Positions 6,001-14,310 of a stretch of DNA of 14,310 bases are shown piece after piece. The stretch lies in UHGV virus genome UHGV-1656152. One strand, given 5' to 3'. The position numbers are program-made. The stretch is from a virus. Each line of letters opens with the position of its first letter. Position 1 is the first letter of the stretch.

Positions 6001-9000
6001 ATCTTGCTCAGTCCGGTGTTGACCCGTCCAGTGGTCGCTTTAACGCGGTAATGAATGCGAACCAGAGTGATCAGGTAACAGGGCAGATTGACACAACCAC
6101 ACGGGGGCAGGTATCGCAGGCAGATAAGTATGTTGCCGGGCTACAGGATGTTGCTGCTCTCGGTTCTGGTCAAAAGGCGGATGCGTTACAGAGTTTTAAC
6201 TCGCTGGCAGACAGCAGTCTGGCAAAAGCTAAATCGGACGCACAGGCTGCGTTTACGAAACAGCAGGGGCGAGCCTCTCTTGTTGGCGCTGGTTTGGGTG
6301 CGGTAGGTGCATATGCGATGTATAAGGCTGGCGGTAGCGGAGGAAGTGGCGGTGCTAAAACACCTGGCACCGGCGCTAATGCCATTCAGCATCAGGCTCA
6401 GAACTGGAGACTGTGATTATGGAGTACGGTAAATACGAAACACTTGCGAGATACGGTTATACCGGAGCTGCCCGTCCACAGGGTGACTGGCAGACGTCAG
6501 CAGCGCTGACACGCCAACAATACGACGACTGGCGAACCAGATATTTGCCCCGCGTGGCAAGGCTGGCTGACCTTGGCGAGAACAACAGCCTGATGAATGC
6601 ACAGCTTGCCCGGGTGGGCGGCCTTGCCACTTCCAGTCTCCGTACAGCGCAGATGGCGCAGGATAACCAGATGGCGAGATACGGGGTAAGCCGCCCGGAT
6701 ATTCACGCTATCAGGAAAACACGGCATTGCGTGAGACCGCCGGAATGGATGTGTCACCGTGGGAGGGCGTGGCTGACGCAACGATCGAAGGTGCAGCCCT
6801 TGGTGCTGCAATGGGGGCACCATTCGGTGCGGCTGCCGGATATCGTGGAAAACGTCAGGCGGCAGATGAAGCAGCCATGCGTGAGGCTGAAAGCGTTCCT
6901 CAGGACGAATCGGCTCCGCAACCCGAACCGGTTGATCCGGTGGCACAGCATCGTGAATCTATGCAGGGGATGAATCGCGAGCAGCTTCTGGAACAGTATG
7001 CTGATGCGGATATGGCACATGAGGGAGACACGTCTGCCGTTCATCGCCGGGAAGCCGCCAGCCAGCTGTTGAATGAACTGGATGAACAGGCGAAGCGACA
7101 GGCGGTGATGGATGAGCTGAAGGCGAAGCCGCGCCCTGAACTGCTTGAGGAATACCGAAAACTCAGCCAGAAGGAAGGGCGTACTGATACTGAAGAGCAG
7201 CAGTTACAGGCAATACGTGATGTGCTTCGCCCTCAGCGGGAGGCCAGACCGGAGGCACAGCCACAGCCGGAAAATGCGGATGATGGCGACGGGAGTATTT
7301 ACCCGACGGTGCGGTTCCGCGATCCGGATGAAGTTCGTATTGAAATTAACGAGAGTGGTGCGTCCAGACCAGCAGAACGCATTGAAAAGGTGCGTCCGGA
7401 CAACCGTTATTTCACGGATGAAAAAAGTGCTCTGGGGAGCGACGTTTTCCGCAATGCCAGCGCCACCGGCCTGAAACCGTCCGTAGTGAAGAAAGGCGAG
7501 AATCAGTATGCCGTTGAAATGGATAATCCTGCGTTCTCTGAAGATGTGGCAACGGAGACCATTAACACTCTGGCTGACGGAGAGCGTATTACTGATGCTG
7601 ATCCGATGGAACAGCCCGCGTTCATGCGTGACCCGCGATTCCGTGGTTTTACGGGGGATGATACAGAAGTGCAGGCCCGTCTTGCTCGTGGCAACGCGCC
7701 GACGGCGGAAGAACTGGTGCGTTCCCAGATGGCTGAAGGTGATGCCGGTCCGACAGCACAGGAGTTAACTGAGCGTCCACGCCTTCCCGCTCCCGGCGAT
7801 ATTCATCCCGGACAGGGATATCCGTTACCAAGAGAAGTAGCGCGTACGCCGGATGAAAATCAGGCCGGACGTGGTGGTCGTTTTACCACAACCGGTGAGG
7901 TGAAGGGCCAGAGTTTCCAGAAAGGACGTGCGCAGGCACCGGAAAATGCCGCTGGTCGCCAGGGGGAAATACTGGAGGGCGAAACAGTTCGTCGTGGTCT
8001 GCCGTCACCGGATGAGCAGAACGCCACAGCACCAGTGCGTGAAGGTCTTCCTGCACCTGAAAGTCAGCGTGGGGTTGATATGCCACAGCCTGAATCACTC
8101 CCTCGTATGGTTCGTGACTCCCTTCCGGAACTGGCACAGCAGGCAGAAGCACGCAGACAGACCGGGGATAATCGCCAGACCATAACCGATGTTCCGGATA
8201 CTGAGGTGCCGGTGCCGGTAGATAAACCGAGCACTCACCAGCAGGCGCGTGGTGCGAAAATTGAAGACTTTGGCGAGGAGATTAAGGGCGCGGCAAAACA
8301 CCGTTATGCGCAGCTTGCTGAAGCTATGGGTAAAACGCTGGAGGATGGGGAGTACGCGACACAACCACTGAGCAAACTGTTTCCAAAGCCGGATTATGCC
8401 CGTCTGGAAAAAGAAGGTGTGGATAGTGACACGCTGGCAATGATGGCGTTGTATCGCAGTGAAATTCCCACCAGAACAAGCCGTAACATGCAGAAATGGA
8501 TCAGCATTGTTAAAAGCGGTCGCGAAGCTACTGCCGGTATGCTGGAGGGGAAAATTCCGGCAGCGAAACTGGCTGATATGATGGACAGTAAGCCGGGGTT
8601 ACGGAGCATGTCGGATACCTGGAAACTGCTCCGTACGCTTTCTGCATTGCAGATTGATAAAGCATCCGGCTATCGTGTCAGGTCCGGTGTTTATTCGTTT
8701 GTCGGGGGAAAACGTTACGATCCGCCGCAAATGATGTATTCGCTTCGTGATAGCAAGGGGCGCGACCTCTTTTTCTCGGAAAGCCGGGATGAGTTACTGA
8801 AAAAGGCGAAAGCATATTTCGATGAACAAGGCTCCAGAGAAAGGGAAACGCCAGCAACCTCTGCTGATGACAGAATAACCTTTGACGTGTACCGGCATAA
8901 GGCCAGTGGCGACATTTTTATCGGTTATGGCAAAAACAGGCAGAAACTGAAGGGCGGTTTTGAGTCTGCCCGTGATGCACATGATTATGTGCGCACACAT

Positions 9001-12000: not shown

Positions 12001-14310
12001 GAAACTGGTGAAACCATTCGCGAAGTTGTCGAGCGCCCTGTGCCGATGGCAATGATGGCGGATCGCTACTTCACCACCAAAAAGGACGGCAAAACTTACT
12101 ACATTAAACTTCATGATCCGCGCCTGATGCGTGCGATGAAGAACATGGGGCCGGAAACCAGTAACGCCGTAATCCGTACGCTGGGGAAAGTTAACCGCTT
12201 CCTGGCAACGGTGAACACGTCGTATAACCCGGAATTTCTGGTCAGTAACTTCATCCGTGACGTGCAGACTGCGGTGATGAACCTGAAGGCTGAGCAGGGA
12301 AGGAGCGACGGTAAACTGAAAGAGCTGGATAACTTATCCGCGCTGGCTGTGGTGAAAGACAGCCGTTCCGCCATGTCAGCCGTATACGCAAGTCTGCGGG
12401 GTAAAACCCTCACGGGCAAAGGCGCACAGTGGCAGAAAGTGTGGAAAGAGTTTGTTGAGGACGGAGGTAAAACCGGCTGGTTTAACATGGGTGACCTTGA
12501 GGGCCAGCAGAAGGAAATGGATCGCCTTGTGTCGCTGGCGAAGGGCGGATGGAAAGGCCAGAGTATCGGTGCATGGCATTCGTTCCTGAACCTGGTCGAG
12601 GATGCCAACGGCGCGGTTGAAAACGCTCTGCGTCTTTCTGCCTATAAACACGCCCGTGATGCCGGTTTGTCACGCCAGCAGGCGGCGTCTCTTGCCAAAA
12701 ACATGACGGTGAACTTTAACCGTCGTGGTGAGCAGGGGATGCTGATGAACTCGCTGTACATGTTTGCCAACGCCAGCATTCAGGGGACCGCAAACCTGGT
12801 GAGAACGCTCGGACATCTTAATGGCGACGGGCCGTTACTGGAGCGCCTTCGCTGGAAGAATCTCAATGTACCGCAGAAAATCGTGCTTGCAGCTGTGGGA
12901 GCGGGTTATCTGCTTGGCTCGCTTAACCGCAGTGTGGCGGGTTAACTGGTACGACAAAGTACCGTCTCATGTGAAAGAGCGTAACCTCGTCATCATGAAA
13001 TCGATGTTCGGGGGCAAGGCCGGTGAGTACTGGAGTATTCCTCTGCCTTACGGGTACAACGTGTTCTTCCTGCTTGGTCATACAGCTGAAGGTGTGGCAG
13101 CGGGCGACCTGACTGCTTCACGTGCTGCCGGTAATGTTGTCGGCGGTATCCTGGGGGCATTCAGCCCGATCGGCAGCGAGACGTCGGAAACGTTGTCGGG
13201 GGCATTGCTGAAAAATGCAGCACCGACAATTCTGCGTCCGTTTGCGAATCTTGCCATGAACGAAAACTTCATGGGGGCGCAGATTTACCAGGAGAACATG
13301 CCGTTTGGTACACCAAAACCTGACAGCCAGCTGGGAAGACGTTCAACGCCAGAAGCGTACAAGGCGTTTGCATTCTGGCTGAATGCGTTCTCAGGTGGCA
13401 GCCAGTATCGTCCCGGCGCGGTGGATATCACACCGGAATCGCTGAAATTCTGGATTGACTATATCTCCGGAGGGACAGGGCGCTTCATTTCCAAAACCAC
13501 GGATGCGGCGGTGAAATCGCTGAATGGTATTGATATACCGGAACAGCAGGTGCCCTTCCTGGGGAAAATTTCGGGTGAGGTGATGCCGTATGCAGACCAG
13601 CAGAAGATGTACGACCGGATGACAGAGGTTGCGCAGTATCACGCAGAGCTGAAGAGTCTGACCGGTGCAGAAAGAACGGCGTTCATTGACGAGAACAACG
13701 GAAAATTGTTGATGAACGGGCTTATGCAGGATACCCGGAAGAGACTGAAGGATTTGCGCAAACAGCGCGATGCCATTTATGCCGACAGTTCTCTCAGTCT
13801 GGCGCAGCAGGCGGCGATGGTGAAATCGGTAGAGCGGGATATGAAGGTTGCCGTGGATCGGTTTAACCGCGAGTACAACAAAAAAGTGGGAGTGGATTAA
13901 CAGAAATGGCCCCGTACGGAAGTGCGGGGCTGATTAAGAAATAAACACACATTAACCTGTAATAACCGGAGCTATTAACATATAGTCAGAAAGAGTATTT
14001 CATGTGAGACAGAGAGCCGATTTATGTTTAATGAAGAAAAAGTTGCGCAAATGGCAGCGTATTTGCTGAAAAAGCATGGCGGATCTATGCGTTTCATTAA
14101 GCTGATGAAGCTGATGTATCTCTCTGACCGCAAAGCAATGGAGTCTTTAACCGGGAAGGGGAGAGGTTTGAATGCTCCCCCACAATTCCCCGGCATCAAA
14201 TCTCCATGCAGGTGAACTATTTTACCCCCAGCGGCAAAATCGCAAAAACAATCAGTGCGATCGAAATGGCAGCCACTACAATTGCAAATGCTTCAGGCTA
14301 GGTCATTGGC

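Follow-up and report, generated by a model that had tools for sequence, protein, structure and literature searches.

A giant polyvalent virion protein gene, probably inactivated by two deletions, in a prophage sequence of the 933W/phi24B type

Introduction

The stretch of the virus genome UHGV-1656152 analysed here (14,310 nucleotides, the whole of which is called the window) raises the question of what is encoded by an open frame of 2,072 codons at positions 6727..12945 of the plus strand, which begins with a TTG and has its first ATG at 6745. An earlier note had taken this open reading frame (ORF) for a whole gene, whose product would be delivered into the host, would carry a membrane-type glycine zipper at its N-terminus and two metallopeptidase-like HExxH motifs, and would be the best candidate in the window for an undescribed function. 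Our results lead to another answer. With a probability of roughly 0.85, the ORF is the middle 74% of a gene which, in an E. coli podoviral prophage of the 933W/phi24B type, encodes the giant polyvalent virion protein, and the gene is inactivated in the window.

The elements that drew attention to the ORF are readily recovered. The first HExxH motif lies at ORF residue 887 (ALAHEWFHSLD, nucleotides 9385-9399) and the second at residue 1154 (LRHEIIHHAMEH, nucleotides 10186-10203), so that the spacing of about 270 residues given before is 267 by our count, where the composition of the ORF leads one to expect 0.044 HExxH by chance. A motif scan of 6727..12945 for the Walker pattern GxxxxGK[ST] was negative, in agreement with the earlier note, and the gene order also stands as claimed, with the ORF downstream of a tail-tip gene (Pfam Phage_Tail_Tip, 1783..3057) and of lom (4100..4837). 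A regular expression finds the glycine run, GxxxG x4 (five glycines at a four-residue spacing), as GAALGAAMGAPFGAAAG at ORF residues 22-38, and AGGA, a weak Shine-Dalgarno-like sequence, stands 10 nt 5' of the TTG.

The open frame as an internal part of a longer gene

The argument is carried by the closest relative found, a prophage in E. coli 23CRST047 (NZ_AP045820.1; coordinates on that sequence are marked L002). There, between the same flanking genes, lies the gene of WP_032179512.1, an "LPD5 domain-containing protein" of 2,783 aa (NZ_AP045820.1 19974-28325), intact as one frame of 2,783 codons in DNA 99.7-99.9% identical to the window. The ORF product agrees with residues 388-2459 of this protein at 2070 of 2072 positions. 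Window 1-6701 corresponds to L002 11504-18204 at 99.87% identity and window 6697-14310 to L002 21105-28735 at 99.74%, and the structural differences between the two sequences amount to a deletion of 2,905 bp and another of 17 bp, which leave the window copy without codons 1-377 and frameshifted at codon 2458. The resulting pieces are as follows.

6697..6701, no strand: junction of the 2,905-bp deletion, from the alignment to NZ_AP045820.1
6413..6696, plus strand: 5' remnant (codons 1-95 of 148) of a gp50-like small virion-protein gene, from positions 1-94 of 148 of the phrog_596 profile and the breakpoint against NZ_AP045820.1
6697..12938, plus strand: codons 378-2457 of the giant polyvalent gene (phi24B gp47/WP_032179512.1 type), lacking its own start codon and ribosome-binding site
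12939..13900, plus strand: 3' end of the giant gene in another frame, with LPD38 (12944-13561) and the natural stop, matching phrog_616 positions 2475-2793

At the first lesion, codon 95 of the 148-aa gene now abuts codon 378 of the giant gene in a different frame, 2,905 not being divisible by 3, and beyond the junction ORF 6413..6973 runs through the giant gene in the wrong frame. The start of the giant gene and its first 377 codons are lost, together with the 3' end of the gp50-like gene, the whole of an 83-aa glycine-zipper gene and the whole of a 421-aa gp48-like gene. The second lesion is a gap at window position 12939, where L002 27347-27363 is missing and the frame shifts. The Stx phage phi296 gives the same picture, since the window aligns to it in two blocks with about 2.9 kb absent between them and with the same 17-base gap at 12939. 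ORF 6727..12945 lies within the fragment 6697..12938 except for its last seven bases (12939-12945), and the adjoining ORF 12821..13900 is, from 12939 on, the 3' end of the giant gene in another frame. Moreover, the phrog_616 profile (2,793 positions) is matched by the ORF at positions 394-2469 with 4,512 bits and by ORF 12821..13900 at the remaining positions 2475-2793. A continuous reading frame that has its own start and runs to about 2,780-2,810 codons, as expected of gp47 and phrog_616, is not found in the window, and to judge from these alignments the window copy is a remnant of a member of that family, not a working member.

What had been described as a whole gene is thus a real frame of 2,072 codons, but one that covers only residues 388-2459 of a 2,783-aa protein. 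TTG 6727 is not a gene start because it aligns to the internal Leu 388 of that protein, and the stop at 12945 is a frameshift product of the 17-bp deletion. In the same way, the GxxxG run is real but internal, at residues 409-425 of the intact protein, and its seemingly N-terminal place is an artefact of the lost 5' end of the gene. Judged from the alignments, both the truncation and the frameshift escaped the earlier note. The alternative, a whole and working gene whose membrane-anchored product has its zipper at the N-terminus and a domain set not yet described, could appeal to the 2,072 open codons and to the weak AGGA before the TTG; against it, the TTG is an internal leucine codon, the DNA upstream is an out-of-frame remnant of another gene, the stop was made by the 17-bp deletion with the rest of the gene following in another frame, and all the domains belong to described families. 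The alignments already refute this alternative, and we regard it as scarcely credible. An N-terminally anchored membrane glycine-zipper protein was rejected as a candidate, the zipper being at 409-425, its hydropathy lying under the Kyte-Doolittle transmembrane threshold of 1.3 and the Pfam Gly-zipper models matching it weakly (E 0.26-0.5). The zipper is kept in phi24B and phi296.

Programmed frameshifting at 12939 was rejected too, for the relatives have one continuous frame and the window is simply 17 bp short. Since the gene lacks its own start and is truncated at either end, and since gp48, the 83-aa protein and most of gp50 are also gone, no function is expected, and the window copy most likely makes no functional product. 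With four virion proteins lost or broken, the prophage is defective. One may still ask whether the host has retained the fragment as an expressed zincin or RNase module, that is, as a domesticated prophage gene. The long frame is still open and a weak ribosome-binding site is possible; yet its 99.9% identity with the intact gene shows the deletion to be recent, with no time left for selection, and the arrangement occurs in no other genome searched, all of which makes domestication highly improbable.

Origin of the two deletions

Both lesions are private to the window sequence. The 2,905-bp junction was found neither in 5,426 complete E. coli genomes nor in genome, metagenome and viral contig collections, the 17-bp deleted form neither in the same 5,426 genomes nor in the contig collections searched, and exact look-up of the three resulting window products in a collection of 15 billion proteins returned none of them. 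As a positive control, the undeleted sequence at the 17-bp site was found in six viral contigs. Such privacy is what one would see if the deletions were assembly or sequencing artefacts, or were otherwise introduced, and the real genome had an intact 2,783-aa gene, and this possibility gains from the flanks, which match a genome carrying the whole gene at 99.7-99.9% identity. The breaks themselves point the other way. The 2,905-bp junction shows a strict microhomology of TA (GGATA against GGCTA gives an imperfect match of 5 nt) and the 17-bp deletion a short homology GGGT, so that from their sequence both look like ordinary deletions, and there is no long repeat at the breakpoints by which an assembler might be misled. 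Defective prophages commonly carry such lesions. We therefore consider an artefact unlikely, and retain the reading of a gene inactivated by deletion.

Family membership

The intact protein has close relatives. Gp47 of phi24B (vb_24B_48, ADN68472.1, 2,807-2,811 aa), which belongs to phrog_616, a family of 933W-like Sepvirinae, is 88% identical from residue 401, has the same set of LPD5, LPD1, MuF_C and LPD38 as the window gene, and likewise closes the late operon, behind lom and the gp51-gp48 cluster. The window copy differs in being a broken fragment which, by the context of its closest relative, belongs to a chromosomal prophage. The intact orthologue in phi296 has the same four Pfam domains and nothing further over threshold. 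In the window, the genes for nozzle, needle (tail-tip) and lom lie upstream, as expected of a late virion gene, and in the closest relative the genes for terminase, portal and N4-gp56-type capsid protein are found still further upstream.

The resemblance to large polyvalent proteins proposed in the earlier note is borne out, since LPD5, LPD1, MuF_C and LPD38 all score far over the Pfam cut-offs. At least two network domains are expected per polyvalent polypeptide, and here LPD5, LPD1 and MuF_C occur in the ORF and LPD38 in its frameshifted continuation. In the account of phage-type large polyvalent proteins by Iyer, Burroughs, Anand, de Souza and Aravind (2017, PMC5512222), the zincin metallopeptidase (MPTase) is a hub domain and LPD38 is restricted to phages; those proteins likewise join several conflict-type domains in one giant late-gene product, and we see no difference in kind. 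The statement that the domain set matches no nameable family does not hold, as its domains were defined in that work and, for CLCA_X, by Lenart et al. (2013, PMC3650047). Nor can the protein pass for a candidate of undescribed function, for RefSeq already annotates it and its family is PHROG 616; with annotation and family both described it is already known.

More distant relatives share the C-terminal part. The DarB-like giants of Bcep22-like podoviruses (Bcep22 gp75 and JC1 gp69, about 4,500 aa) and PTXU04_00025 (2,198 aa) have a C-terminal LPD38, and in Bcep22-like phages the giant gene is the last gene of the virion module. The upstream cargo of these proteins comprises lytic transglycosylase, methylase and helicase-like domains, whereas the window protein has none of these and no NTPase motif. 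A P1 DarB-type antirestriction protein was rejected accordingly, with no Walker motif and no methyltransferase or helicase families in Pfam, the phrog_10089 match reflecting the shared C-terminal module only. Tape-measure identity was rejected, as the earlier note had it, on the polyvalent Pfam domains, the lack of any tape-measure family match, the podoviral setting with nozzle and needle, and the absence of tandem repeats in the ORF besides one 28-bp array. A tail fibre was also rejected as the identity of the giant protein, which has polyvalent domains instead. PADLOC gave no match.

Domain layout

The layout kept in the window is an internal zipper, an acidic linker, LPD5, a CLCA_X-type zincin that includes LPD1, a second small zincin-like domain, MuF_C/PBECR, and a C-terminal module of about 900 aa with LPD38. 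In window coordinates the parts are:

6790..6840, plus strand: glycine zipper GAALGAAMGAPFGAAAG, internal (residues 409-425 of the intact protein)
6844..8250, plus strand: acidic linker rich in Pro, Gln and Arg (composition E 12%, A 11%, R 10%, P 9%)
8704..9135, plus strand: LPD5 (PF18799, E 3e-43, 148 bits against a cut-off of 27)
9079..9855, plus strand: first zincin domain, CLCA_X type, with HExxHxxD at 9385-9408 and LPD1 at 9616-9855 as its C-terminal helical part with conserved Glu residues
9949..10401, plus strand: second, smaller zincin-like domain, with HEIIHH at 10186-10203
10783..11052, plus strand: MuF_C, PBECR RNase-like fold (PF18819, E 1e-17)
11194..12938, plus strand: initial two thirds of the conserved module (about 900 aa) at the C-terminus, LPD38 being its last part (matches to phrog_14770, phrog_10691 and phrog_10089)

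LPD1 is matched in Pfam at E 5e-23, and LPD38 (PF18857) at E 3e-48 in the frameshifted continuation. No Pfam family was found on ORF residues 1-600 save the weak zipper matches, and the linker is probably disordered, to judge from its composition. MuF-C is assigned the PBECR RNase-like fold in PMC5512222; the family has its catalytic His in the first helix and a Ser or Thr in strand 4, and a His (VKH) and a Ser (VASVYG) occur in the window segment as possible counterparts.

The first HExxH motif is placed between the Pfam domains LPD5 and LPD1, in a stretch without Pfam annotation. NCBIfam CLCA_X (NF041907) matches here with E 5e-45 over 243 of its 250 model positions, at residues 1172-1427 of the intact protein (ORF 785-1040), a span that covers both the first motif and LPD1; the score of 154 bits is under the 260-bit cut-off which the model sets for whole proteins. 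CLCA_X is a zincin-like family of about 250 residues with an HExxH-plus-Asp active site and a predicted activity, found mostly in phages, prophages and plasmids and often in proteins of more than 1,000 aa (PMC3650047), and HEWFHSLD fits the family consensus, the domain being here one of several in a giant protein. The pattern G-[SAT]-L-[AG]-H-E-W-x-H-x-x-D is present in all distant homologues that cover the site, and a comparison of 56 aligned sequences shows conservation of 90% or more at every one of the following: a His before the motif, the motif's own H, E, H and D, and two Glu further on, in LPD1. The domain thus has the conserved HExxH with a downstream Glu that is expected of a zincin MPTase. 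This conservation fits one of the clades described in PMC5512222, in which strand 2 ends in a conserved His and the HExxH is followed three residues later by an Asp; the first motif of the window has precisely this form. In an AlphaFold (AF2) model of ORF 800-1350 (mean predicted local distance difference test score, pLDDT, 76.8, core above 90), the zincin consists of a helix, a three-stranded sheet, the HExxH helix, an insert and a Glu helix. From conservation and profile together we take the first motif to be a true active-site motif of a zincin, whose C-terminal portion is what Pfam calls LPD1. A PDB search with the profile of residues 800-1350 also hit tetanus toxin, at E 0.62, which we dismissed as chance.

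The second HExxH follows the first by about 230-250 residues in most homologues. Its sequence HEIIHH fits both HExxH and HExxxH, and PMC5512222 describes another MPTase clade with HExxxH. In 19 diverse homologues, chosen for having the motif, the H, E and H are invariant, some of the sequences reading HExxxH. The profile of the second domain has as its best matches among PDB sequences the IrrE metalloproteases, at E 0.054 and 0.15, over a strand-strand-HExxH segment, and in Pfam it gives weak matches to M76, DUF6782 and SprT-like. The AF2 model sets the second motif in a helix (346-360) after beta strands. The strand-strand-HExxH core is shared with the minimal zincins ImmA/IrrE (PDB 8slm, 3dte), which is a resemblance and not a demonstrated membership, and the second domain is predicted to be, probably, a small IrrE-like zincin. 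An hhalign comparison of domain 2 with domain 1 is topologically sensible at P 0.028, a value at which we do not claim a tandem duplication of zincin domains. Altogether, when we looked for signs that the HExxH motifs lie in non-catalytic contexts, both were found in conserved, zincin-like contexts, and the Pfam model MPTase-PolyVal matched neither zincin domain of the ORF.

Several points weigh against this interpretation and against the reading of the locus as a whole. Pfam searches of tiles of 200-600 aa at E up to 10, a check that the earlier note had proposed, yielded a weak Peptidase_M76 match as the best (E 0.18) but no peptidase family at either HExxH; the proposed structure prediction did model an HExxH helix and a Glu helix in ORF 800-1350, but Foldseek found no significant match of the zincin model in the PDB (best E 0.75). 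The values for the second zincin (E 0.05-0.15, hhalign P 0.028) are weak. From one sequence, biological deletions look the same as assembly or sequencing errors, and neither junction occurs in any collection searched; the AGGA 10 nt 5' of TTG 6727 leaves some translation of the fragment possible; and ejection into the cell, proteolysis and counter-defence are inferences for every member of the family.

Presence in virions and the role of the intact protein

Mass spectrometry of virions, which had been suggested as a check, is already published for the 88%-identical orthologue. In the phi24B preprint of 2026 (doi 10.64898/2026.04.10.717836), gp47 is abundant in purified virions with 10,962 peptide-spectrum matches (PSMs), second only to the capsid protein, and is invisible in the cryo-EM map, and its authors propose an ejection protein; the virions also contain gp48 (421 aa), gp50, gp51 and an 86-aa protein. 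All six gp47 test peptides (residues 133, 513, 1207, 1548, 1980 and 2685) are in the peptide table of the preprint, and their spread means that the whole length of gp47 is represented in virions. The preprint labels MuF-C the metallopeptidase. This label is misplaced, since by Pfam and PMC5512222 MuF-C has the RNase-like PBECR fold; the HExxH motifs belong to the CLCA_X/LPD1 region and to another region, on the N-terminal side of MuF_C. The length of gp47 is given in the preprint both as 2,811 aa and as ">3,000 amino acids"; the gene lies at 9149-17572 of the phi24B sequence (L006), and the GenBank CDS vb_24B_48 has 2,807 codons.

Related phages add to this evidence. In Burkholderia phage JC1, the DarB-like gp69 of 4,515 aa with its C-terminal LPD38 is in virions, and 933W has homologues of the JC1 portal, capsid and head-closure proteins (PMC9144972). 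The LPD38 protein PTXU04_00025 (2,198 aa) is critical for efficient infection by E. coli phage PTXU04. Outside phages, the LPD5-zincin-zincin cassette also makes up an 874-aa protein in a conjugative element (L004 and L005, 10001-12625), which implies use by conjugative elements as well as phages and fits the polyvalent-protein concept of PMC5512222. The neighbours of this gene encode TrbL, a Peptidase_M23-TrbL fusion, TraG and a MobA/MobL relaxase with LPD7.

As to how the intact protein might work, it would be packed inside the capsid and leave via the tail at infection. Its invariant C-terminal module may provide the packaging and ejection function, with the variable upstream domains as cargo; the zincins might divide the polyprotein into functional parts or might have host proteins as their targets, and RNA might be the substrate of the PBECR domain. 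The main rival, which follows the proposal of the phi24B authors, is a purely structural ejection conduit across the periplasm, in which the metallopeptidase cuts peptidoglycan and no role in counter-defence or host takeover is played. Short-tailed phages such as T7 and P22 need a conduit across the periplasm. The conduit would also account for a protein that virions contain in quantity but that the ordered map does not show, the PTXU04 protein is needed for efficient infection, and glycine zippers recur in the giant protein and in neighbouring virion proteins. It is harder to reconcile with the cassette in a conjugative element that has neither capsid nor tail, with a MuF_C of RNase-like fold that is not a wall enzyme, with the lack of any peptidoglycan-hydrolase family in the intact protein by Pfam, and with nearest zincin structures that are protein- or peptide-cleaving enzymes. 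Moreover, the N-terminal parts vary hugely (proteins of 902-5,535 aa) on a constant module, which is the pattern of a swappable cargo. The conjugative cassette and the upstream variability argue for cargo, and we hold a role as conduit alone to be improbable, if by no means negligible.

The C-terminal module with LPD38

The last 950 residues or so of the protein, which the frameshift splits in the window, are also found on their own, as proteins of 900-1,050 aa, and the module forms the end of three different giant PHROG families. At E up to 0.001 its profile matches 23,014 cluster representatives, and at 1e-30 it still matches 11,826; in all but three of the best 150 the match ends at most 25 residues from the C-terminus, the protein lengths ranging from 902 to 5,535 aa. 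By sequence comparison, then, the pattern would be one of a constant C-terminal part with swappable upstream parts. Pfam LPD38 covers 189 residues of the module of about 900. The AlphaFold model (pLDDT 76.9, predicted template modelling score 0.73) is mostly helical with one small beta domain, and a PDB sequence search with the module profile gave coiled-coil noise only, with no solved structural relative. A stand-alone LPD38 protein (P0138) lies in a prophage remnant beside an integrase, a context that is uninformative.

It is conceivable, though we put it forward tentatively and with some doubt, that the module is a universal carrier for capsid packaging and ejection in short-tailed phages, which can be fused to almost any N-terminal cargo. 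The data behind this idea are the spread of the module, its C-terminal place and the lengths of the proteins that carry it, and the broken copy in the window adds nothing to a test of it.

Neighbouring genes and mosaic context

Upstream of the giant gene, window 161-1786 encodes a 541-aa protein, an "internal virion protein" in PHROG. It shares 95% identity with the phi24B CDS vb_24B_39, and this CDS has the same coordinates as gp57, the protein identified as tail nozzle in the cryo-EM work. The 424-aa "J-like" protein of window 1783-3057 corresponds, by position and domain, to the central needle gp56. At window 3347-4837 the GC content falls to 0.38 over lom and the gene for a 208-aa "membrane associated protein" (phrog_425), the operon being otherwise at about 0.52-0.55, and this part looks like an inserted moron island. 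A 46-aa ORF at window 5070-5210, MSQKSLITVTICMTVIFTIWMLHGSLCEFRLNLWGAEFAAFLQCKQ, corresponds to a "Hok/Gef family protein" gene in the closest relative and to "MokW-like host killing" in phi296, and is a toxin-type gene inside the late operon.

Glycine zippers are seen in three proteins of the cluster, namely at the C-terminus of the 218-aa gp51-like protein (gene 5760-6416), in the 83-aa protein (L002 18378-18629, deleted in the window; Pfam Gly-zipper_YMGG, E 9e-6) and in the giant protein (6790-6840). The phi24B orthologues of all three were detected in virions, and the recurrence hints at a shared role in membrane insertion during ejection. Compared with phi296, window 161-6732 is only 83% identical and 6696-13930 is 96% identical, which would place a mosaic boundary close to the deletion site.

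Significance

The locus itself matters little, being a damaged copy of a gene that RefSeq annotates, with domains described in 2013 and 2017 and an orthologue seen in virions; what the finding does is mark this prophage as defective. The family, on the other hand, supplies by spectrum count the second most detected phage protein in the virions of the commonest Shiga-toxin phages, and it carries two predicted zinc proteases, an RNase-like domain and a C-terminal module without structural relative. If the idea of a universal carrier is true, the 933W/phi24B giant would be a phage analogue of polymorphic-toxin delivery, in which the cargo, once ejected, is set free by the two zincins. The family should be studied in intact phages, phi24B among them, and not at the locus in the window.

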